In this document: in pieces, positions 1 through 17,248 of the stretch
How positions within the stretch are numbered: the first letter of the stretch is position 1
Layout of the letters: every line of letters starts with the position of its first letter
Assembly (NCBI GenBank): GCA_044359535.1
Contig: JBIKLZ010000019.1
Location: forward strand, 1 to 21,122
Length of the DNA stretch: 21,122 nucleotides
Source: Chlamydiia bacterium
Lineage (GTDB): Bacteria; Chlamydiota; Chlamydiia; Chlamydiales; 2-12-FULL-49-11
Direction of reading: 5' to 3'
Translations under genes and position numbers: made by a program
Notes under the pieces: generated by a model
What the model saw: the letters and a program-made list of their open reading frames with translations, nothing else
Databases searched by the model: none
What the model was told of the DNA's origin: nothing

Positions 1-665
1 ATTTTTTTTACTTTTTTTCTAATTTCTTCCCGAGAATCTTTTAAATAGATGGCATTTCCTAAAGATTTAGACATTTTATTCCCATCTATTCCTGGGACAT
101 TGATTTCAAACTTTGGGTATAAAGGGGAGGGTTCAATAAAAATCTCTTCTTTGTACTGTCCATTAAACTTTCTCACCACGTCTTTAGCAAGCTCAAGCAT
201 CGGGGCTTGATCCCTTCCAACTGGGACAAGCTCTGCATCAAAGGCAATAATATCTGCAACTTGGTAAATAGGGTAAAGATAAAACCCTGCAGGGACTGAT
301 TCTTCATACCCTTTTTGCTTTGTCTCAGCTTTAACTGTGGGGTTATGCCCTATCCTATTGATAGAAACAAGGTTTAATAGGTATTGGGTGATTTCTGGTA
401 AGGGAGAAATTGCCGATTGCAAAAAAATACTTGCCTCTTCTGGATCAATCCCCACAGCTAAATAGTCAGCAACAACCTCATAGACATTTTGGGTTACCTT
501 CTCTACATTATCAAAATTATCGGTAAGAGCTTGGGCATCAGCTACCATAATATAGGTTTCATGACTTGATTGCATAGCCACACGATTTTTCAATGACCCT
601 GCGTAGTGACCAATATGTAAAGGACCTGTAGGTCTATCCCCAGTAAGTAAAGATTTCTTTTTCAT
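1..665 (-). CDS. trpS: Tryptophan--tRNA ligase (5' part; runs off the left edge of the window)
   Basis: Not in the ORF track. Manual translation from ATG at 665 gives MKKKSLLTGDRPTGPLHIGHYAGSLKNR (HIGH motif), and in the same frame near the edge VPGIDGNKMSKSLGNAIYL (KMSKS motif). This is a typical TrpRS. Confidence 0.97.
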   Translation of the reverse strand, partial: MKKKSLLTGDRPTGPLHIGHYAGSLKNRVAMQSSHETYIMVADAQALTDNFDNVEKVTQNVYEVVADYLAVGIDPEEASIFLQSAISPLPEITQYLLNLVSINRIGHNPTVKAETKQKGYEESVPAGFYLYPIYQVADIIAFDAELVPVGRDQAPMLELAKDVVRKFNGQYKEEIFIEPSPLYPKFEINVPGIDGNKMSKSLGNAIYLKDSREEIRKKVKK

Positions 666-7687: not shown

Positions 7688-8797
7688 TTAAAAAATGGTT
7701 TCTTTTAAATGACTTCTACGCACATCCCCATAGGGGTAGGTATAAACGTCCCTAAACTGTGAAATATTTTTATCAATTTCAAGCCACTGTTGATCAACAA
7801 TCTCCCTTCCTCTTAACGAAGCCTCTAGATATTTTTCTTCACTTTTAAGGGTTTCTCGTATTTTTTCTACCATCTCATCCCCTGTTTTAAACCGCAAAGG
7901 GGTTTGTTTGTAGGGGGTGATATCTTGACAGGCGATAGGGATCCCTAAAGCAGCTGCTTCCAAAAATTTAATAGGGCTTTTTGCATGATTATAAGGATTA
8001 TCCGCAAGAGGGGCTATCATCATATTTGGCTCAAGTGAACTTATTATTCTGGGTAGCACCCCTAATTCTACAAAGTGATAATATTCCATTTCTTTTGATT
8101 CGACATACTTTAATAGATAGTAGGGACAACTTCCTATAAAAACCCATTTAAACTCTTTTCGTGTCGCTTCAATGGCTTTAAGGACCCCATAAAAATCATC
8201 TTTATCCCCATTGATCCTTTCACAATCGATATGAGAACTTGACCCAGCATAAACCACCCTTGGCTTAGACCTATGCTTTAGAAAGTTTCTCTGTAAAAGT
8301 TCTATACTATAGAGATTTCCTGCCCAGAAAAAAGGGATTCTATTGGGAAGGACTGTAATTTCAGTAATTCCAGTGGCCTTTTGGTAATAGTTTTTTAAAA
8401 AAGGGGTTGAAACAGTAATCTCATCACAAAGATGCATGATTTCAATAATCGACTCTTTACAGTCTTCTTTGTTTTGAGTTCGGTAATAGTGAAACTCTGA
8501 AACATCCTCTAAAAACAAGATATCATCGACATCATAAATAAGTTTAAAATTTGCTTTTCTTCCAAGTTCAGCAACTTTTTCTATATATTTTAAGGAAATG
8601 TTTCCCCCACTTCTTTGAAGGACCACAACATCTGTGGAAATATAGGATAATGCATCATTAAAATACTTTTTTATTGAGGAGTAGACAACTTCCCCCCTTA
8701 AAGAGAGTTGATAGGCCGGCCATAAACATCTCCAAGCCGCAAGAGCTTGCACTTCAGATCGGTGATACAAAACTCTTATAGGAAACATTTCATTCAT
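7688..8797 (-). CDS. Putative GT-B (GT4-like) glycosyltransferase, paralogue 2
   Basis: YDVDD, CDEITVSTPFLK, PRVVYAGS, APLADNPYNHAKSPIKFLEAAALGIP (donor-binding K..E motif). The start overlaps the stop codon of the upstream paralogue. An alternative ATG lies at 8788. Confidence 0.8.
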   Translation of the reverse strand: MNEMFPIRVLYHRSEVQALAAWRCLWPAYQLSLRGEVVYSSIKKYFNDALSYISTDVVVLQRSGGNISLKYIEKVAELGRKANFKLIYDVDDILFLEDVSEFHYYRTQNKEDCKESIIEIMHLCDEITVSTPFLKNYYQKATGITEITVLPNRIPFFWAGNLYSIELLQRNFLKHRSKPRVVYAGSSSHIDCERINGDKDDFYGVLKAIEATRKEFKWVFIGSCPYYLLKYVESKEMEYYHFVELGVLPRIISSLEPNMMIAPLADNPYNHAKSPIKFLEAAALGIPIACQDITPYKQTPLRFKTGDEMVEKIRETLKSEEKYLEASLRGREIVDQQWLEIDKNISQFRDVYTYPYGDVRRSHLKETIF

Positions 8798-9902
8798 TTA
8801 AACCCTTTAAAATAGTTCTTCTTTCATCTTGATAGGGGGTTGAAAAAAGCTCTGTGTAGAGGGCTATATTTTGATCTAATTCAAGCCATAGGGTTTCAAC
8901 CATTTTTCTCCCCCTTCGACAAGCCTCTGTATATCCTTCTTCCGTTGAAAGGGTTTTTCGAATTTGATAAACCATTTGGTCTCCTGAACTGAAGCGAATG
9001 GGGGCCATTTTATATGGGGTGATATCCTGACAAGCAATGGGTATTCCATGAGCTGATGCTTCTAAAAATTTGCAATTGCTTTTTCCATGATTATTGATAT
9101 TGTCAGCAAGGGGGGCTATCATCATACACACTTCTAAAGAAGCTAATTTTTTATGATACCCATCCATAGTTTCAATTTCATAATATTCAACATCTTTATT
9201 GAGAAGGTTTTCTTTTAGTTCAAAAGGAATGGCCCCTAAAAAGATCCATTTAAACTCAAAAAGGGTGGTTTTAATAGCCTCTATAATGTGAGTAAAATCA
9301 TCATTACCTAAGGCACCAAAAGCATTCATATGAGAGGTTGATCCCGCAAATAAAATTCTAGGCCGATGCAGATGTTTTTTATAGATTTTCCCCCTTATTT
9401 CTTCATTATAAAAATTCCCAGCCCAAGAAAAGGGGATTCTATTAGGTACCACAGTGATCTTATTAGGTCCAAAAGTGTTGAGGTAATACTGTTTTAAAAA
9501 GGGTGTACTCACAGTGATTTCATCACAGAGTGAAAAAATTTTTTTTAAAGCCTCACCGTTATATAAATGAGGTTTTGATTCAATCCCATAATAGGTGGGC
9601 ATATCCTCTCTGATAAGAACATCATCGATATCATGAATGAGTACAAATCGATATTTTTCCCTTAATAGAGCTATAGACTCTATATATTTTAGGTGCTCAA
9701 AACTTGTTGCCCTTTGAATCCACAAGACATCTAACCCCTCATACATGTGGGGATCTTTTAAGTATACAGATGAGGTAATAAGGTCGATCCTCTCTAATTG
9801 TTCAAGGTAAAATGTGGGGAAAAGGATCCTCCAAAATCCCGAAGCGTAGATCCCTGAAGGAAATGTCAATAAAGAAGGTTTTACTTTTTTTTCATGACCC
9901 AT
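8790..9902 (-). CDS. Putative GT-B (GT4-like) glycosyltransferase, paralogue 1
   Basis: HDIDD, CDEITVSTPFLK, PRILFAGS, APLADNINNHGKSNCKFLEASAHGIP. Collinear with the neighbouring paralogue over its full length. G-rich SD upstream. Confidence 0.8.
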   Translation of the reverse strand: MGHEKKVKPSLLTFPSGIYASGFWRILFPTFYLEQLERIDLITSSVYLKDPHMYEGLDVLWIQRATSFEHLKYIESIALLREKYRFVLIHDIDDVLIREDMPTYYGIESKPHLYNGEALKKIFSLCDEITVSTPFLKQYYLNTFGPNKITVVPNRIPFSWAGNFYNEEIRGKIYKKHLHRPRILFAGSTSHMNAFGALGNDDFTHIIEAIKTTLFEFKWIFLGAIPFELKENLLNKDVEYYEIETMDGYHKKLASLEVCMMIAPLADNINNHGKSNCKFLEASAHGIPIACQDITPYKMAPIRFSSGDQMVYQIRKTLSTEEGYTEACRRGRKMVETLWLELDQNIALYTELFSTPYQDERRTILKGLNE

Positions 9903-9949: not shown

Positions 9950-10909
9950 ATTCATACTCCATTTTTTAGAAAGCTCATAAAAGAGCGTTTACAGGGCAAA
10001 TCAACAACCTTTTTTTCTTTTGTAGGACCTTGCTCCATTTACAATGAAGAAGAAACCCTTTTTTATGAAGATTTACTAAAAGGGCTTCAAAAAGAGCTTG
10101 GTAATACCATGATCCTTATCATGAGAGCCTTTGTCGAAAAATCTCGTACCTGCTTTGGTTGGAGGGGATTTGTTAACCAAAGTGATCTATCACAACCTGA
10201 AGATATTCTCACAGGGATACAAAGGACACAAGATCTATTTAAAAAACTTACCACCCCCCTTGCAATGGAGTGTATCGATCCAATGATCTATCCCCATCTT
10301 GAAAAGTTCCTCTCTTGGGGGTGTATTGGAGCTCGAACTTCAACATCCTCCACACATCGAATCTTAGCCTCCAATGCTTGTATCCCCTTTGGTTTTAAAA
10401 ATAGCTTGGATGGAAATGTTCTTTCAGCAATCCATGGATCCCTTGTAGCCCAACAAAGTCACTGCATTTTAACTTCGCAAGGACAAATTTTTTCACAAGG
10501 GAATAAAGATACCCATATCATTTTAAGAGGGGGGGATAAAGGGGTCAACTACACAAAAAATGAGGTGGAAAAAATCTCTCAACACGCAAAGAGTTTAGGG
10601 CTTTTTTCTCCACTTCTCATCGATTGCTCTCATGGTAATGCCCCTTGTAAACCCGATGATCAAAAAGTGGCCTTCAACTGTAGCCTTGAAAGGGCTTTAC
10701 AATCCCCTGAAAAGGTCTTTGGGATCATGCTAGAAAGTCATATTTACAAAGGATCTAATAAAAAAGAGAAACTATTTGGTCTTTCTTTAACAGACCCCTG
10801 TCTAAGCTTTGAGGAAACCCGAGAACTCCTTTTATATGGTGCCGATAAAATCACTCAACAGAGCAAGGGAGGATTAAATCTACCCACATCCTATGTGTGT
10901 AGTCACTAA
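9950..10909 (+). CDS. aroG: 3-deoxy-7-phosphoheptulonate (DAHP) synthase, type I-alpha (AroF/G/H-like); proposed ATT start upstream of the ORF-track start at 10109
   Basis: The frame is open from 9926 and encodes RKLIKERLQG...VGPCSI (metal-ligand Cys at 10031) ahead of MRAFVEKSRT, IGART, GFKN, LRGG, IDCSHGN, MLESH and TDPC. The product call is firm. The start codon is inferred (SD AGAGGG 9936-9941, ATT 9950) and the isoenzyme symbol is nominal. Confidence 0.88.
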   Translation: MHTPFFRKLIKERLQGKSTTFFSFVGPCSIYNEEETLFYEDLLKGLQKELGNTMILIMRAFVEKSRTCFGWRGFVNQSDLSQPEDILTGIQRTQDLFKKLTTPLAMECIDPMIYPHLEKFLSWGCIGARTSTSSTHRILASNACIPFGFKNSLDGNVLSAIHGSLVAQQSHCILTSQGQIFSQGNKDTHIILRGGDKGVNYTKNEVEKISQHAKSLGLFSPLLIDCSHGNAPCKPDDQKVAFNCSLERALQSPEKVFGIMLESHIYKGSNKKEKLFGLSLTDPCLSFEETRELLLYGADKITQQSKGGLNLPTSYVCSH

Positions 10910-11297
10910 TTACCTCATCATCGACAGAAATAATCTGAAGCTTATACACTAAAAAGCCCTTCTTTTCTTCGAATTCTTTACCTAAAAGCTCAATAATCCT
11001 TGCCCCAGCTCTTCTTTTGATAGGGAAGACTAAGGTCTCTTTTGTTAAGTTTCTGTAAATTATTTCCACTTGCATGCGGTATTTATAAGCCTCAAATTGG
11101 ATGGGTAAAGACCAATTGATGTAGAGCTTTTCCCCTTTAGGGGGGTTTAAAGTTCTAGGATCAGGGGTTTTTGCAAAACGACTGGCATAGGTGAGTTTGT
11201 CTGTTTTGATTTTATCAACCCCAATATAAGTTGTCGAACAGCTACTAAAAATAACAACTAACATCCCTATGGAAAATTTCTTTACTTGGCTAATCAC
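10851..11297 (-). CDS. Conserved chlamydial lipoprotein, CT303-like
   Basis: GTG at 11297 with GAGGA upstream gives MISQVKKFSIGMLVVIFSS-C (basic N-terminus, hydrophobic stretch, lipobox Cys). The motif ASRFAKTPDP...GEKLYINWSLP resembles the CT303 family as I recall it. The ORF-track start at 11357 overlaps the divergent gene and is unlikely. Confidence 0.65.
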   Translation of the reverse strand: MISQVKKFSIGMLVVIFSSCSTTYIGVDKIKTDKLTYASRFAKTPDPRTLNPPKGEKLYINWSLPIQFEAYKYRMQVEIIYRNLTKETLVFPIKRRAGARIIELLGKEFEEKKGFLVYKLQIISVDDEVISDYTHRMWVDLILPCSVE

Positions 11298-11350
11298 AAA
11301 ATCCTCTATACTAAAAATCAATAAAAGAAGTGTACAAGGAGAAACAATAG

Positions 11351-11857
11351 ATGTCAAAAACTATCGTTACGGCTGTGTTGGGTGCTCTTATCATTGATGA
11401 TAAAATAGTCCTTGTTAAACGGTCCGACATCCCTGTTTGGGTCTTGCCGGGTGGGAAAATTGACCCTAATGAAACTGCCGAGGAAGCAATCGTTCGAGAG
11501 ACAAAAGAAGAAACGGGCTATGATGTAAAAATAGAGAGAAAAATAGCTCTTTATAGTTCCTCTTCACCCTTTTTAACCCCTGTCTTTTTATTTGCCCTCT
11601 CTCCCCTCTCTTTAGAGCCCTCAGCTTTTGATACAACCGAGAGTAAAGAGGTAGCCTTATTTTCCCCACAAGATCTACCTTATGACATTGTTCCATTTTA
11701 TCGTGATTGGATTAAAGATACTTTTGAAAATAAACCCTATTTTGAAAAACATATCACCTCCATCACCTTATTTTATATCGTCAAAATGTTGCTTCTTCAC
11801 CCTCTGATTGTAGGAAGATTTTTTCTTATGAAGTTAGGTGTTCATATAAATACCTAA
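11351..11857 (+). CDS. Nudix hydrolase
   Basis: Complete Nudix box GGKIDPNETAEEAIVRETKEETGY preceded by WVLP. SD AGGAGA at 11337-11342. Hydrophobic/basic C-terminal tail. Substrate unknown. Confidence 0.92.
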   Translation: MSKTIVTAVLGALIIDDKIVLVKRSDIPVWVLPGGKIDPNETAEEAIVRETKEETGYDVKIERKIALYSSSSPFLTPVFLFALSPLSLEPSAFDTTESKEVALFSPQDLPYDIVPFYRDWIKDTFENKPYFEKHITSITLFYIVKMLLLHPLIVGRFFLMKLGVHINT

Positions 11858-11903
11858 ACTAAGACAAAAACATTTTATAGCACTTAATTCGTTCCTGACG
11901 CCC

Positions 11904-13658
11904 TCATTTTTTTTGCTTCATTGCCATTTGAATAATTTTTTGAATAATTTCCGGATCTTTTTTCAATTCTTCACTAGCATATTCAAGCCCTTCCGGATCT
12001 TTTTCAATAACTTTAAGAAGGTACTCTTTATTATTTTGAAGGTCAGTCACTGCTGCTAATCTTTGAATGCTTACATCAAATTCACCCTTCAAAAAATTCT
12101 TTAAAGCTTGATCTTTTACATATCTAAGAGATGCATAATTTTGAGCTACAGCAGCTCTTGCAATCTCAACGTCCTCTTGCATCTCTTTGCTTAGCTTTGG
12201 AAGATTCAATCCATTACTCTTTACAAAAGCAAGAGCAATTTCTTTTGATTTTTTTAATCTATTAGATATAGAAGAATAATCAAAATCACCACTTGCAAGT
12301 CCTTTAATTACAAACTCCTCATGATCTAATAATTCATTAGCCCAAGAGCTCACTCCAATAGGCTCATTAGTTTTAGTTGGGTTGTTCACTGTTTGATCTA
12401 AAGAAATTTCACCCCCTTCAGAAAGCTTGGATTCTATCGTTTTTGAATCTTCTTTTTTAGAATCATTTCCTTTTGATTGTACTTTTTCATAAATTAGGAC
12501 AGAAGCGTTTCCAAAACCCCCTTTTGGACCAAGCAATCTTTTATTCATGTCATTGTAATTGATCCACTGGTCTTTGCCTTGATCTTTAACCTTTACCATA
12601 CTTGTATAATGGCCAGGCCAAAAATATTTAATAACCCCTTTCAAAACAAAATCATTTCCTCTGATAGAGAGGGTATCGGATATTTCAGGGTTTTTTCCTT
12701 CTATTGATCCAATAAAAAACTCCTCATTCCCACCTTCTAGGCTGCTCGAAAATTCTTTGCTAAGAAGATAGAATGAGTTAGAAAGGATGTTTTCTAAAGG
12801 AGCAATATTTAACGTTTCCGCAAGAAATGTCATAAATTCAGAAGAATCATTTGTTTTACCCTTTCCAGGGGTAAGTCCACACTTTTTTTCGCTATTTTTC
12901 AATAAGCCTTGCAATTGATTCCAAAAGGCTTCTGATTTATCAACTATAGCCTTTTTACTTGAAGACGGATTATCCATTGTGTTTAAAAGGTCTACAAGAC
13001 TTTTCTTTAAAGGTGTTGCTTCTTCTTTTGGAACAGCGTTTTTAACCAATTCTGTTAGACCAGGAATGTTTTTTATGATTTGGATCGCTGAATTCATGTA
13101 GCACACATTGACCAGTCCCTTTGTCATATTTGGAAGTCCAGGGCCTCCAATAACTTTTTTAGAACTAGGGGGTGGATCGGTCATTTTTGCAAGTTCAGCC
13201 GCTACTTTTTTTAGGATTTGACCCAGTACTTGTTGAGGACTTATCCCAAAAATGTTACTAAAAAATTTTTTTATAACTAAAAAAATTTTAGCTATACCCT
13301 TTACTTCTTCCGCATCTTCTTTTTCCAAATTTCCGTACAATTGTTGAAAAAAAACGATATTTTCATTGAATTCAATCATTTCATTGACTATTTTTTCCTT
13401 TTCTTCCTCTGTTTTATTAGGTCTATTACATTCAGCTTTCAATTCTGCAAATGTTTGGTCTAGACTCTGTTTTAGACTCAGTTCTCTTGTAATGTCCCTT
13501 TCCTTTAAATCTAGGGGAGCTTGGTCACTTTCACCTCTATTACCTACCACTGATTGTGCAACGTGGGTAACATCCCTCTCCATTTGAGAGATGGGTCTTT
13601 CACGTTGATCTTTAATTTCTTCAATACTATCACGGTTATGCGGTTGCAGGGGGTTCAT
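11904..13658 (-). CDS. USP-family (peptidase C19) deubiquitinase-like protein with C-terminal DUF4116-like repeats; candidate secreted effector
   Basis: Cys box GLPN...NVCYMNSAIQ (C186), DSSEF (D271, QDAxEF-like), His box FVLKGVI....GHYTSMVK (H350), WINYND (N369/D370) and ASVLIYEK. C-terminal ~25-aa repeats, e.g. NKEYLLKVIEKDPEGLEYASEELKKDPEII. SD AAAGGA. Confidence 0.8.
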   Translation of the reverse strand: MNPLQPHNRDSIEEIKDQRERPISQMERDVTHVAQSVVGNRGESDQAPLDLKERDITRELSLKQSLDQTFAELKAECNRPNKTEEEKEKIVNEMIEFNENIVFFQQLYGNLEKEDAEEVKGIAKIFLVIKKFFSNIFGISPQQVLGQILKKVAAELAKMTDPPPSSKKVIGGPGLPNMTKGLVNVCYMNSAIQIIKNIPGLTELVKNAVPKEEATPLKKSLVDLLNTMDNPSSSKKAIVDKSEAFWNQLQGLLKNSEKKCGLTPGKGKTNDSSEFMTFLAETLNIAPLENILSNSFYLLSKEFSSSLEGGNEEFFIGSIEGKNPEISDTLSIRGNDFVLKGVIKYFWPGHYTSMVKVKDQGKDQWINYNDMNKRLLGPKGGFGNASVLIYEKVQSKGNDSKKEDSKTIESKLSEGGEISLDQTVNNPTKTNEPIGVSSWANELLDHEEFVIKGLASGDFDYSSISNRLKKSKEIALAFVKSNGLNLPKLSKEMQEDVEIARAAVAQNYASLRYVKDQALKNFLKGEFDVSIQRLAAVTDLQNNKEYLLKVIEKDPEGLEYASEELKKDPEIIQKIIQMAMKQKK

Positions 13659-13714
13659 AAAAACCGTCCTTTATTTTTAAAAAAACTTTTTTCTTATTAA
13701 AAAGAAAGCTTTTT

Positions 13715-15097
13715 TTAAGGAGAGGTCATTTTTTTATGATTAATCCATCTTTCAAATTCTTCTTCAGTCAAAAGATCTAACACCATAGCAGCCTCTTTGA
13801 GAGTGATTCCCTCTTTATGGGCTTTTTTTGCGATAGATGCTGCATTATTATAGCCAATATGAGGGTTTAAAGCAGTCACAAGCATTAAAGAATACTTAAG
13901 ATGCTTTTCAATCATGGCTTGATTTGCCTCAATCCCTTTTAAACACTTATCGACAAAATTCATCGCACCATCAGAGAGTAAATGTATCGCTTCAAGGAGG
14001 TTATAGACAACCACTGGGCGAAAAACATTTAACTGAAGATGACCCATACTTCCAGCAATTCCAATAGCGGCATCATTGCCCATCACTTGACAGGCAACTT
14101 GTGTAAGCATCTCACATTGTGTGGGGTTTACCTTTCCAGGCATAATAGAAGAACCAGGTTCGTTTTCTGGAAGGATAAGCTCACCAATCCCACATCTTGG
14201 CCCTGAGGCTAAAAGGCGGATGTCATTACCAATTTTCATATAGGAAACAGCTAGAGTCCTTAAAGCACTAGAAAGATGAACTAATCCATCCATAGATCCA
14301 AGGGCTTCAAATTTATTCGGCGCCGATAAAAACTTCCTCCCAAGGGCCTTGGATAGTTTTTTTGCCACTTTATCGGCATATTTTGGATGGGTATTTAACC
14401 CTGTTCCAACAGCTGTTCCTCCAAGGGCTAAAAATGAAGCCCCTTCTGCAGCCTCTTTAACCCTCTCAATTCCATTCTGAATTTGCATAGCAAACCCAGA
14501 AAATTCTTGTCCAAGGGTAAGGGGGGTTGCATCCATCAAATGGGTCCGCCCACATTTTACAATATCCTTAAACTGTTCAACTTTAATCAGTAATTCTTTT
14601 AAAAAGGATTCTAAAGAGGGGAGTAATTTATCATAAACAAGGGTAACAGATGCAATCACACATGCTGAGGGGATCACATCGTTTGAAGATTGGCTTTTAT
14701 TGACATCATCATTTGGGTGAATAAAGGAGTATTCCCCTAACTTTCCTCCATGTTTTAGATTTGCCACATTTGCAATAACCTCATTGACATTCATATTGGT
14801 CTGTGTTCCTGAGCCAGTTTGCCAGACAACCAAAGGAAAATGATCTTTATATTTTCCTGCAATCACTTCATCGGCAGCATCTTGAATCAATAAGGACTTT
14901 TCCTTTGGAAGAAGTTTTAATTCTGTGTTTACTATTGCAGAGATTTTTTTTATCAGGGCAAGGGACACAATCACCTCCTCAGGCATTTTTTGCCCCCCGA
15001 CCTTAAAATTTTCAATAGAGCGGGCTGTTTGAGCCCCATAAAACATTTTTTCAGGGACTAAAACCTTCCCTATAGTATCCCTTTCTTCTCTAAACAT
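13715..15097 (-). CDS. fumC: Fumarate hydratase class II
   Basis: YGAQTARS, VWQTGSGTQTNMNVNEV, HPNDDVNKSQSSND, GRTHLMDATPLTLGQEFSG and the signature GSSIMPGKVNPTQCE. Confidence 0.98.
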   Translation of the reverse strand: MFREERDTIGKVLVPEKMFYGAQTARSIENFKVGGQKMPEEVIVSLALIKKISAIVNTELKLLPKEKSLLIQDAADEVIAGKYKDHFPLVVWQTGSGTQTNMNVNEVIANVANLKHGGKLGEYSFIHPNDDVNKSQSSNDVIPSACVIASVTLVYDKLLPSLESFLKELLIKVEQFKDIVKCGRTHLMDATPLTLGQEFSGFAMQIQNGIERVKEAAEGASFLALGGTAVGTGLNTHPKYADKVAKKLSKALGRKFLSAPNKFEALGSMDGLVHLSSALRTLAVSYMKIGNDIRLLASGPRCGIGELILPENEPGSSIMPGKVNPTQCEMLTQVACQVMGNDAAIGIAGSMGHLQLNVFRPVVVYNLLEAIHLLSDGAMNFVDKCLKGIEANQAMIEKHLKYSLMLVTALNPHIGYNNAASIAKKAHKEGITLKEAAMVLDLLTEEEFERWINHKKMTSP

Positions 15098-15146: not shown

Positions 15147-15228
15147 GGGAAAATCCTACCGATTTATTATAAAAAAAGGTGTTGTCAAAAAAAGAGCCAA
15201 AGGGTGAATTCCAATTAAAGAGGTGGTT

Positions 15229-16086
15229 ATGGTAAATAAACTCAATTTTTTTACACCCGTTTATCATCAGGACCCAACACGAAGTCAACGTGCTGAATCT
15301 GTTATTGATAGCTATTTCTATTTAGGGGGAAAAATTGCCACTGTAGAAAAAACTAAAAACAGGGAAGAGGTGGTTTTTTTAAACAATCCAACACACACTG
15401 AAAAATCAAAAACAACTGGACTAAATATACTTAAAGTTTTTTCCTACCTTACTGTAATTACTCCCCTTGCTTTTTTAATTGCAAAGGTAATTATACGCTT
15501 CCCTAAACATTATCGGGTAGATCTTGACTATTCAACCTCTAAAAAACATGAGCTTTCAACCCCTCAAAACATCGTCAACAACTCTCCCTCTTCGAATTCT
15601 ACAACAATGAAATTGCTTAACCAGGATGGTGAAAAAGAGTCTGTGGAAATACAGAAAATCGCAGAATGGTTAGCAGACACTCCTATAAAAGTAAAATATC
15701 AAGACTTTCAGCCTTTATGGAATTCAAAAGAGGAGTATAGATCTTTAATTAATAGACTAATTGAAAATTCAACAGATGAGGTAAAATCAAAATTGGAAAC
15801 CCAATTAGAAGCCTTTAACAACTCTATTTCAGTGGTTCAGCAGTTAGAATCCGATTATAATTTCACTCAAATTTTAAAAGAGTTAATTAGAGACAATAAG
15901 ACCGAAATTCTCAATGAAATAAAAAATGCTTTCGGAGAAGACGAAAGAGCCTTTCTTTTTCCAAAAGGTCACCCTTTACAACAACTGATGCGACTTAAGA
16001 GCTTTTTAACTACCAATGCTAATCTCAACGAAGCTTTTCTTAAAATTCAAACTAGAAAATTACTTGAATATTTAAAAACAATGTGA
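15229..16086 (+). CDS. DUF648-type chlamydial protein, paralogue 1 (candidate effector/membrane-associated protein)
   Basis: N-terminal FFTPV...IDSYFYLGGK...LKVFSYLTVITPLAFLIAKVIIR matches the chlamydial DUF648-like N-terminal module. ATG 15229 is preferred over GTG 15223 because GAGGT lies upstream and it aligns with the paralogue start. Confidence 0.7.
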   Translation: MVNKLNFFTPVYHQDPTRSQRAESVIDSYFYLGGKIATVEKTKNREEVVFLNNPTHTEKSKTTGLNILKVFSYLTVITPLAFLIAKVIIRFPKHYRVDLDYSTSKKHELSTPQNIVNNSPSSNSTTMKLLNQDGEKESVEIQKIAEWLADTPIKVKYQDFQPLWNSKEEYRSLINRLIENSTDEVKSKLETQLEAFNNSISVVQQLESDYNFTQILKELIRDNKTEILNEIKNAFGEDERAFLFPKGHPLQQLMRLKSFLTTNANLNEAFLKIQTRKLLEYLKTM

Positions 16087-16212
16087 GAATGATAAAGGTA
16101 CGATGATCAATAAAGACTCTTTTTTTATTCCCCTTGTTTACGATAAACCATCACCAAAGGAAGCTGCAGAATCTGCTGTTGATAACTATTTCTATTTAGG
16201 GGGAAAAATTGC
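15312..16212 (+). repeat. 27-nt identical direct repeat between the two DUF648-type paralogues
   Basis: CTATTTCTATTTAGGGGGAAAAATTGC at 15312-15338 and 16186-16212, encoding YFYLGGKIA. Confidence 0.9.
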
Positions 16213-17248
16213 ACAAGTAGATGACACAAGAGCTTATGTTACTTTGATTGACCCGCCGCCAGATAAAACAGGTCGTGATAAAGCTAAGACATGGGGACTA
16301 AATCTTATTAAAATCATCTCTTATCTTACTCTCATTATCCCCCTAGGATTTTTAATTGCAAAAGCTGCCATCCGCTCTTCAAAAGAGTTATTCCTTCCTA
16401 CAACTGATCAACCCGAGCCTGAAGATGCTAAAATTGATAAACCTCCTGTAAATACAACTCCTTTAGAAACAACTCCTGACACTCCTTCTCCTTTGCTTGA
16501 GGGTGTTCTAAAAAAAATTCAGACTATGACTATCGATTATAAGAGTAAAAAGATACCTGTAACTGTTTTTTCATTATCCCCAACACTGCCAGACCCCTCT
16601 TCTTTCATTAATTATCAAGACCCTATTGATGAAACTACTTTTGATGAGTGTAAAGATTCCCCTTCCTTGAGTTTTATATCCGATGTAAATCGAGATATCT
16701 TTTTAACTACAACTATTGCAGAATGGTTATCAAATCTCCCCTGTCAAACCACATTAAAAGGACAGTCTAGCCATTTTTGGAAATCTTCAGAAGAATATCA
16801 AGAATTGATTGAATTTTTAATTAATCATTCTGCTGAAGACATTAAAACAAAACTAGAAACTCAGCTAAACACTTTCCTCAAAATAAAAGATCTCCTTCAA
16901 ACTTTAGAAAATGACTATGATATTATCAAAATCCTAGATTCCTTGTTATTTGGACTTAATAACAAACTAAAGGCTGAAGCAGAACCTTTTGGTTGGAAAT
17001 ATCTCGAACTAAAAAATGCTTTTCCTGAGGAGATAGGTAATTTTCTTTTTCCAGAAGAAGCCTTTAGTAAGAAAACTCAGTATTGTGTAAAACACGCACA
17101 TGCTATTATTTACTTCCAATGGATTCGTCTTTGTTCCTTTTTAAAAACAAAGACAGAATTAAGTCTCGATAAAAATAATTTTGACAAAGATTTTGATAAA
17201 AAATTTGAAAATCTTATACAAAAACTAAAAGAAATTTATCCTAAATAA
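16103..17248 (+). CDS. DUF648-type chlamydial protein, paralogue 2
   Basis: FFIPL...VDNYFYLGGK...IKIISYLTLIIPLGFLIAKAAIR, then a Pro/Thr-rich linker and a helical C-terminal domain homologous to that of paralogue 1. Confidence 0.7.
   Translation: MINKDSFFIPLVYDKPSPKEAAESAVDNYFYLGGKIAQVDDTRAYVTLIDPPPDKTGRDKAKTWGLNLIKIISYLTLIIPLGFLIAKAAIRSSKELFLPTTDQPEPEDAKIDKPPVNTTPLETTPDTPSPLLEGVLKKIQTMTIDYKSKKIPVTVFSLSPTLPDPSSFINYQDPIDETTFDECKDSPSLSFISDVNRDIFLTTTIAEWLSNLPCQTTLKGQSSHFWKSSEEYQELIEFLINHSAEDIKTKLETQLNTFLKIKDLLQTLENDYDIIKILDSLLFGLNNKLKAEAEPFGWKYLELKNAFPEEIGNFLFPEEAFSKKTQYCVKHAHAIIYFQWIRLCSFLKTKTELSLDKNNFDKDFDKKFENLIQKLKEIYPK

Follow-up and report, generated by a model that had tools for sequence, protein, structure and literature searches.

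A compact USP (C19) domain without Fingers in an environmental Chlamydiota genome

The contig JBIKLZ010000019.1 of an uncultured lake-water Chlamydiota bacterium (assembly GCA_044359535.1), analyzed here over 21,122 nucleotides (nt) (the window; positions are those of this stretch unless a locus name precedes them), carries on its minus strand a gene whose product, P0001, contains a ubiquitin-specific protease (USP) domain that lacks the Fingers subdomain. An initial annotation, made from the DNA letters and their open reading frames (ORFs), had described it as a bacterial "fingerless USP effector" acting on host ubiquitin or ubiquitin-like proteins (UBLs) through a non-canonical S1 site. All of its motifs and codons were reproduced when recomputed by script, and the fold, the loss of the Fingers and the bacterial origin stood up to analysis; the effector role and the S1 site, like secretion and substrate, are what we infer from them. 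We think it probable that P0001 is a secreted, host-directed deubiquitinase or UBL protease.

The USP domain and the absence of the Fingers

The Pfam model for USPs (PF00443, 254 positions) aligned its positions 6–103 to residues 182–284 of P0001 (39 bits against a cut-off of 23.9, E = 9e-10), and matched 21/21 aligned relatives. Searching PDB sequences with phmmer (E ≤ 10) gave 12 matches, all of them USPs and the best of them USP15 (E = 0.0015), and the USP assignment is therefore not a matter of chance. A profile of the family, for which the best 60 of 108 matches were considered, aligned to USP15 at E = 1.3e-16 over a range spanning both the Cys and His boxes. AlphaFold2 (AF2) modelled residues 150–400 from an alignment of 25 sequences with a mean predicted local distance difference test score (pLDDT) of 87.4 and a predicted template modelling score (pTM) of 0.85. 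All matches listed by Foldseek against the PDB were USP-fold chains, the best again being USP15 (E = 5.6e-9). The USP domain proposed initially was thus recovered by Pfam, PDB matches, USP15 profile alignment, AF2 and Foldseek, with no non-C19 fold among the PDB sequence matches or the Foldseek matches listed.

Two relatives, P0002 (79% identity, 413 residues) and P0003 (75%, 388 residues), came out of a word-indexed search across 5.8 billion proteins. With residues 160–400 as query, phmmer found 21 proteins at E ≤ 0.001 among 1.84 billion representatives, 6 of them at E ≤ 1e-10. The distance from catalytic Cys to His is 164 residues in P0001 and 162–177 in 14 short forms, against 228–335 in nine longer relatives. 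A tree of 23 family members (excluding the fragments P0013 and P0022), whose base is unresolved and whose branches are long, did not decide by its topology on a single origin of the short forms; two changes are needed, or one where the starred branches are allowed for.

In the AF2 model C186 (in NVCYMNSAIQ) is the first residue of helix 186–197, which is followed by Thumb helices at residues 199–207, 212–229, 235–255 and 272–283 (full-length numbering) and by Palm strands at 314–319, 329–332, 335–346, 350–359, 362–369, 372–377 and 385–392. H350-Y351 stand at the start of strand 350–359, N369 closes strand 362–369 and D370 lies in a turn. C186 was invariant in 25/25 aligned sequences, and the His-to-Asp spacing was 16–22 residues across the family. 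Among the 14 short forms N177, C186, N189, Q193, H350, D370 and Y390 were invariant; N177, C186, Q193, H350 and D370 remained so in the alignment of 21 relatives, where Y390, in the closing strand, was nearly invariant. The marks of the USP/UBP class (MEROPS C19, PF00443), namely a profile match, a Cys box at a helix N-terminus and a His box, were all found. We conclude from profiles and model that the gene product has a genuine USP/C19 fold, with Cys, His and Asn/Asp predicted to lie at the canonical structural elements. A conserved acidic residue of the USP Thumb binds the arginines of the ubiquitin tail (PMC10719079); by analogy, we take E274 of P0001 to be its counterpart.

The domain spans 224 residues (170–393), in agreement with the first estimate of about 220, and the "roughly 65" residues reported between DSSEF and the His-box strand also held (60 residues to the strand start at 335, 75 to H350). 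Positions 104–212 of PF00443 were unmatched in P0001. In the USP15 alignment the stretch from the DSSEF helix to the strand before the His box held 50 profile positions against 157 USP15 residues, leaving about 107 missing. It is this interval that encodes the Fingers in the USP fold (Hu et al., 2002, as summarized in PMC10719079), and because the deficit falls there, the domain consists of Thumb and Palm without Fingers. A zinc ribbon is impossible, since the whole protein has just three Cys residues (77, 186 and 260). The VIA comparison agreed with the USP15 profile deficit, as did the AF2 model, in which only two parts of the three-part USP hand (Thumb, Palm and Fingers) are predicted and the Fingers are gone. 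The eukaryotic cores of USP46, USP12, USP30, USP21, USP15, USP2 and USP14 have 300–340 resolved residues, of which 100–135 were unpartnered in the P0001 model. In comparison with these cores, the part missing from P0001 lies at the Fingers position and the zinc-ribbon Cys residues are absent, whereas P0001 has a 4-residue insertion between Asn and Cys and a short WPG loop before the His.

The initial annotation had been right about extra residues between the oxyanion Asn and the Cys: N177 lies 9 residues before C186, where canonical USPs have the Asn 5 residues before the catalytic Cys. Profile alignment to USP15 opened a 4-residue gap exactly at the MTKG site. The Asn-to-Cys distance was 5 residues in 3/14 short forms and 6/9 long forms, and 9–18 in the remaining family members. 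Because the insertion is found or absent in both short and long forms, it is independent of Fingers loss and, on sequence comparison, a trait of the family. The Cys loop had 10-residue block means of pLDDT 88–94 in the domain model, with N177 at its 9-residue rather than a 5-residue distance.

Protein layout, known USPs and the proposed function

The features of P0001 are located in Table 1. Its start is shared with the two closest relatives, P0002 and P0003 (MNPLQPH/MDPLQPH), and AAGGA lies 8 nt 5' of the ATG. Promoter scanning around the gene gave 7 sites against a shuffled mean of 9.4, which is no excess, and terminator scanning gave 4 sites against 3.5, no more than shuffled sequence.

Table 1. 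Position of the P0001 gene and its features in the window
Feature	Residues	Position	Strand	Remarks
Whole ORF (P0001)		11904..13658	minus	584 amino acids plus stop, ATG start
Polar N-terminus, predicted disordered	1–56	13491..13658	minus	pLDDT <50
Helical N-terminal region	57–159	13182..13490	minus	Helices 56–77, 84–109, 117–137, 141–159 (full-length AF2)
Amphipathic hydrophobic stretch, GIAKIFLVIKKFFSNIFGI	121–139	13242–13298	minus	Kyte-Doolittle 19-residue mean 1.41
USP (C19) catalytic domain	170–393	12480..13151	minus	Thumb helices and Palm sheet, without Fingers
Cys box, GLPNMTKGLVNVCYMNSAIQ	174–193	13080..13139	minus	Catalytic C186, codon 13101–13103
Insertion MTKG	178–181	13116–13127	minus	Family-specific, 4 residues
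DSSEF	271–275	12834..12848	minus	Start of Thumb helix 272–283
Fingers-replacing segment	285–334	12657..12806	minus	4-residue helix, loops, two short Palm strands; partly low-confidence
GHY	349–351		minus	H350 codon 12609–12611, then aromatic gatekeeper Y351
His box to Asn/Asp		12549..12611	minus	N369/D370 at 12549–12554
WINYND	365–370		minus	With N369/D370
Closing Palm strand, ASVLIYEK	385–392	12483..12506	minus	VLIYEK 387–392; AF2 strand 385–392
Linker, Lys/Ser/Asp-rich, disordered	397–435	12354..12470	minus	pLDDT <50
DUF4116 helical repeats	436–583	11910..12353	minus	PF13475, 3 Pfam stretches

On sequence inspection residues 1–56 have no Sec-type hydrophobic signal and are a candidate type III secretion signal; the genome encodes the type III export gate SctV/FHIPEP. 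Seven relatives carry a transmembrane-like segment N-terminal to the USP domain, with a Kyte-Doolittle 19-residue mean above 2.0 at the place equivalent to the amphipathic stretch of P0001. Most family members also show a conserved N-terminal module, (Q/P)W-x-hydrophobic-A-A..AP..D..W, followed by the transmembrane-like segment (P0009, P0014, P0015, P0017, P0019, P0020 and P0023). This arrangement suggests membrane anchoring in the relatives, and the P0001 lineage has lost the strong N-terminal hydrophobicity.

Downstream of the domain, the linker is polymorphic for insertions and deletions (indels) across natural populations. The DUF4116 profile (PF13475, 49 positions) matched in three stretches (E = 6.6e-21, 74 bits against a cut-off of 24.9); among 21 aligned members only P0001 has DUF4116 fused to the USP. 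This part was helical throughout in the full-length AF2 model (pLDDT 50–65). DUF4116 has been modelled as an alpha-solenoid, with no function given in the passages concerned (PMC8078820). The full-length model (pLDDT 66, pTM 0.48) showed no confident packing of the N-terminal helices or of the DUF4116 repeats onto the catalytic domain and, at this pTM, neither supports nor contradicts the idea that another part of the protein substitutes for the Fingers.

A fingerless USP has been described before in TssM of Burkholderia pseudomallei (PDB 8ssi), called at that time the only described bacterial USP-type enzyme (PMC10719079). Like P0001, TssM has a bacterial USP fold made of Thumb and Palm only, in which a short helix with loops stands where the Fingers would be; the acidic residue conserved in the Thumb and the aromatic one that follows the catalytic His are retained, and the domain ends at the canonical last Palm strand. 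For both proteins the nearest solved eukaryotic structures are USP46 and USP12. Sequence kinship between them was not detected: TssM was outside the 12 PDB sequence matches and unseen among the best 60 of 108 family-profile matches. In structural comparison it ranked 43rd by Foldseek (TMq 0.50, 18% identity) and fell outside the VIA top 50.

The two proteins differ in several respects. TssM has 134 residues from Cys-308 to His-442 (PMC10719079), against 164 in P0001. From D457 to its end at residue 490 TssM has about 30 residues, with helix alpha7 and a 14-residue Littlefinger loop (473–486) which, between alpha7 and the last strand, binds the Ile44 patch (PMC10719079). In P0001 the stretch from D370 to Y390 has 20 residues and no helix (17–22 residues in the 14 short forms), and because it is so short and helix-free, a Littlefinger is unlikely. 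The N-terminal Ig-like domain of TssM is absent from P0001, whose N-terminal 160 residues are predicted to be disordered or helical. The Cys-loop insertion and the DUF4116 tail of P0001 are not part of the TssM description in the passages of PMC10719079 that we drew on, and secretion, probably type III for P0001, is type II for TssM (PMC10719079).

The USPs of Simkania negevensis, SnUSP1–3, are three active enzymes of full size, conserved over the entire USP domain (PMC10643670). They resemble P0001 in belonging to Chlamydia-like bacteria and in having canonical active-site and gatekeeper residues, and their hydrophobic regions, which suggest membrane attachment, recall those of the seven P0001 relatives (PMC10643670). 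They differ in size, the constructs having 336–363 residues (167–529 and 187–522; PMC10643670) against 224 in the P0001 domain. No SnUSP was recognizable among the 21 sequence relatives, whose identifiers are bare codes. TssM and the Simkania enzymes were the only bacterial USPs named in the relevant passages of an October 2026 review (PMC13720258). No account of a chlamydial USP lacking Fingers, or of a USP-DUF4116 fusion, came up in a literature search over main texts.

Short USPs of 250–280 residues are widespread among giant viruses (Nucleocytoviricota); they gave the nearest language-model clusters (scores 0.92–0.94, all with PF00443) and were also the closest look-alikes in predicted structure. 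Viral models of similar size came from Tetraselmis virus (252 residues; template modelling (TM) scores 0.56/0.56) and Bodo saltans virus (261 residues; TM 0.60/0.58), with identities to P0001 of 10–17% in the structural alignments. A freshwater or protist-associated ecology is common to these viral USPs and P0001. The phmmer search over 1.84 billion representatives gave no giant-virus kinship beyond its 21 mostly chlamydial-type proteins.

We propose that P0001 is a modular protein in which the disordered N-terminus would serve as a type III signal, followed by the helical region, whose amphipathic stretch would correspond to a true membrane segment in relatives, the 224-residue USP core, and the linker with its DUF4116 repeats. 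C186 at the N-terminal end of helix alpha1, H350 and N369/D370 would form a papain-type triad, and the D271/E274 helix together with Y351 a groove holding the ...RGG tail. The enzyme would remove ubiquitin, or a UBL close to it, from proteins of the protist host or from the surface of the inclusion or the bacterium, and this cleavage would protect the bacterium from ubiquitin-dependent degradation. Because the Fingers are absent and there is no room for a Littlefinger, the distal ubiquitin would have to be held by Thumb and Palm surfaces, to which the pre-Cys hairpin insertion and the fast-evolving Thumb helices may add grip. Localization or substrate choice would most likely be set by the DUF4116 tail or, in relatives, by the N-terminal membrane segment.

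The best-surviving alternative keeps this fold and changes its target: P0001 may be specific for a UBL (NEDD8, an ISG15-like, SUMO-like or protist-specific UBL) or may prefer ester-linked ubiquitin on non-protein substrates, rather than being a general ubiquitin isopeptidase. The main S1-ubiquitin grip is gone with the Fingers, 11/14 short forms have the Cys-loop insertion, the Thumb surface varies fast between alleles, and the structural matches included USPL1 (TM 0.59/0.58, similar on both chains; PDB titles: bound to SUMO2/SUMO3). TssM, moreover, prefers ester-linked ubiquitin (PMC13720258). Yet the elements that bind the ...RGG tail, D271/E274 and H350-Y351, are retained, TssM is still ubiquitin-specific without Fingers, by approximately 116-fold over NEDD8 (PMC10719079), and the Simkania USPs react mainly with ubiquitin probes (PMC10643670). 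We consider such a narrowed specificity rather unlikely.

Evolution, distribution and genomic setting

Divergence was measured against a 47-kb metagenome contig of a very close sister strain (L034). Between the two strains fumC had 99.2% nt identity (dS 0.033, dN/dS 0.03) and the NUDIX gene 98.4%, whereas the USP gene had 89.6% (for residues 1–396, dS 0.10, dN 0.114 and dN/dS 1.1), with dN/dS of 0.98 for the USP domain and 0.9 for the DUF4116 tail. The USP gene thus diverges approximately 10-fold faster than its neighbors. Positions 11904–13658 stand out as a divergence hot spot against flanks 11351–11857 and 13715–15097 (98.4–99.2% identity). The dS of the USP gene is approximately 3 times that of the flanks, possibly through allele exchange by recombination.

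In the sister strain (L034:4001–5744) the linker differs in length by 1 nt, which stops the USP ORF after 413 residues, and the DUF4116 part (157 residues) continues in another frame. A third allele, from another lake run, had 23 differences in 245 nt and an in-frame 15-nt linker deletion at 12446. Among the three closest alleles, substitutions fell in 2/39 conserved columns and 51/115 variable ones (Mann-Whitney p = 2e-9), the conserved columns being defined from 11 other family members. The substitutions were concentrated in the Thumb helices and the Fingers-replacing loop, and the Palm/His-box half was nearly unchanged. This pattern points to constrained, fast evolution of the gene, as expected for a host-interaction protein.

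Several observations weigh against an intact, host-directed enzyme of the proposed structure. A whole-gene dN/dS of approximately 1 against the sister strain would, alone, fit relaxed constraint, and that strain has the gene broken in two at the linker. The 4-residue insertion shifts the oxyanion Asn in sequence. The AF2 alignment was shallow at 25 sequences, AF2 having itself been trained on USP structures, and the Fingers-replacing segment was modelled at low confidence (ten-residue pLDDT block means of 52–69 for residues 291–310 in the full-length model and of 61–76 at the equivalent place in the domain model).

The gene might on such grounds be in decay or a remnant without function, a USP copy of this lineage that has drifted neutrally since its role was lost; the divergence from the sister strain beside a conserved fumC, the frame change in the sister-strain linker, the indel in the third allele and the differing architecture of the closest relatives would all fit. 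Set against this, the 584-codon frame is open, population indels lie in-frame within the domain-flanking linker, and the catalytic residues are invariant in 21 relatives. The sparing of the conserved columns and of the Palm/His-box half further weakens the idea of decay, which we judge improbable.

The distribution of the domain bears on another reading, in which P0001 is a housekeeping or self-processing Cys protease that acts inside the bacterium, with no link to host ubiquitin. The secretion of P0001 is a prediction, and the gene follows fumC on the same strand at a distance of 56 nt and may be co-transcribed with it. Elsewhere, however, the USP fold goes with tails of ubiquitin or UBLs. 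The domain query matched 7/400 genomes of the phylum (its own, 4/5 others of the genus and 2 distant ones), which speaks against a core gene, and PF00443 was found in 0/14 control bacterial and archaeal genomes. The position of the gene differs between sister species, and it co-occurs with eukaryote-associated repeats, DUF4116 having 21 matches in the genome. Host-independent housekeeping is decidedly improbable in the light of these data.

Within the family-level group PF00443 was present in 13/22 genomes and 5/7 genera. These searches indicate that USP genes are common in this chlamydial family, the very short form being largely a trait of one genus. The rarity of USPs in bacteria, on which the initial annotation had leaned, therefore does not extend to this family and, with fingerless TssM already published, the case is less exceptional than it was framed. 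A search of the genome contigs with a six-sequence alignment gave 2 loci. The genome has a second short USP on contig C4 (L002:775–2154, plus strand; 459 residues, 40% identity), with a 6-residue Cys-loop insertion and without DUF4116. It lies tail-to-tail with a leucine-rich-repeat-like protein (L002:2151–2942, minus strand) which has no Pfam match at E 0.001. Neither a Peptidase_C48 nor an OTU match was found in the source genome, which is 92.6% complete; the OTU search matched no control genome either and is weak evidence.

The source genome is a Chlamydiota metagenome-assembled genome (MAG) of 1.21 Mb in 57 contigs. Neighboring genes in the window encode tryptophanyl- and valyl-tRNA synthetases, a Ser/Thr kinase of 912 residues, a sodium:alanine symporter, FumC, V-type ATPase subunits and a DUF648 protein (PF04890). 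DUF648 and such a set of genes are typical of chlamydiae. These neighbors, and a neighborhood kept in two relatives, confirm the bacterial (chlamydial) origin claimed initially. The gene was present in lake-water metagenomes from many studies (24 runs), with no RNA run among the runs listed.

In two lake runs apart from the probable source, contigs with 0 differences covered 12223–13727 and 11700–12324, jointly bridging the catalytic domain, linker and DUF4116 repeats, and the separate 47-kb contig had an identical fumC-USP-DUF4116-NUDIX order. Because independent contigs bridge the junctions and the same gene order recurs, an assembly artefact or eukaryotic or viral contamination, in which a mis-binned or chimeric USP fragment was joined to DUF4116, is very unlikely: the nearest language-model look-alikes are giant-virus USPs and the genome is a MAG of 57 contigs, but the gene sits mid-contig between chlamydial genes and its guanine-cytosine content (0.33–0.35) is close to that of the adjacent lineage-specific genes.

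In a sister species fumC has the short USP on its opposite flank, beside V-ATPase genes and a DUF648-like gene, and the region is therefore a variable islet. In the window, 15223–16086 and 16103–17248 (both plus strand) are tandem paralogues with a common hydrophobic segment near residue 65–95, the first of which matches DUF648, a chlamydia-associated family. A homologue of 643 residues (L032:4777–6705) adjoins the short USP of the sister species. The pair and the USP make up the variable islet that separates fumC from the V-ATPase operon. The 21 DUF4116 matches of the source genome are spread over 7 contigs (C8, C31, C36, C42, C43, C53 and C54); related genera show the expansion too, and for a genome of 1.2 Mb the outlay on repeats that have no assigned function is considerable.

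Other features of the window lie further from the USP gene. The ORFs at 7688–8797 and 8790–9902 (both minus strand) are overlapping tandem paralogues of approximately 370 residues, one with a weak, sub-cut-off glycosyltransferase-like Pfam match. A DAHP-synthase-family ORF at 10109–10909 (plus strand, 266 residues) covers profile positions 50–257 of 270 and may be short at its N-terminus; its 3' end shares 59 nt with the 5' part of an ORF that has no annotation (168 residues, TTG start; 10851–11357, minus strand).

A probable second fingerless USP lineage

The fingerless design had previously been described only in Burkholderia. P0001 represents a fingerless USP lineage of apparently separate origin, marked by a Cys-loop insertion of its own and, in this strain, by a DUF4116 tail. 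At 224 residues, its domain ranks with the smallest natural USP cores that keep every catalytic element. P0001 would be a second instance, apparently an independent one, of ubiquitin recognition free of Fingers, and as such a natural experiment on the minimal needs of the largest family of deubiquitinases. A compact USP of this kind could also serve as a research reagent, if its specificity proves unusual.

More tentatively, one freshwater Chlamydiota genus may have radiated its own Fingers-less USPs independently of TssM, re-inventing the recognition of the distal modifier on the Thumb, where the pre-Cys hairpin and the variable Thumb helices would form a new S1 site shaped by an arms race with protist hosts. 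The target could then possibly be a non-canonical one, such as a divergent protist UBL or ubiquitin in ester linkage on the surface of the bacterium or its inclusion, with the DUF4116 solenoid as an exchangeable targeting module.

For the proposed host-directed deubiquitinase or UBL protease, the fast divergence of the gene around a spared core is what one would expect where a gene interacts with the host, and it flags surfaces of interest. For the family, these data mean that USP-type enzymes are common in at least one environmental Chlamydiota family and are not a peculiarity of Simkania.

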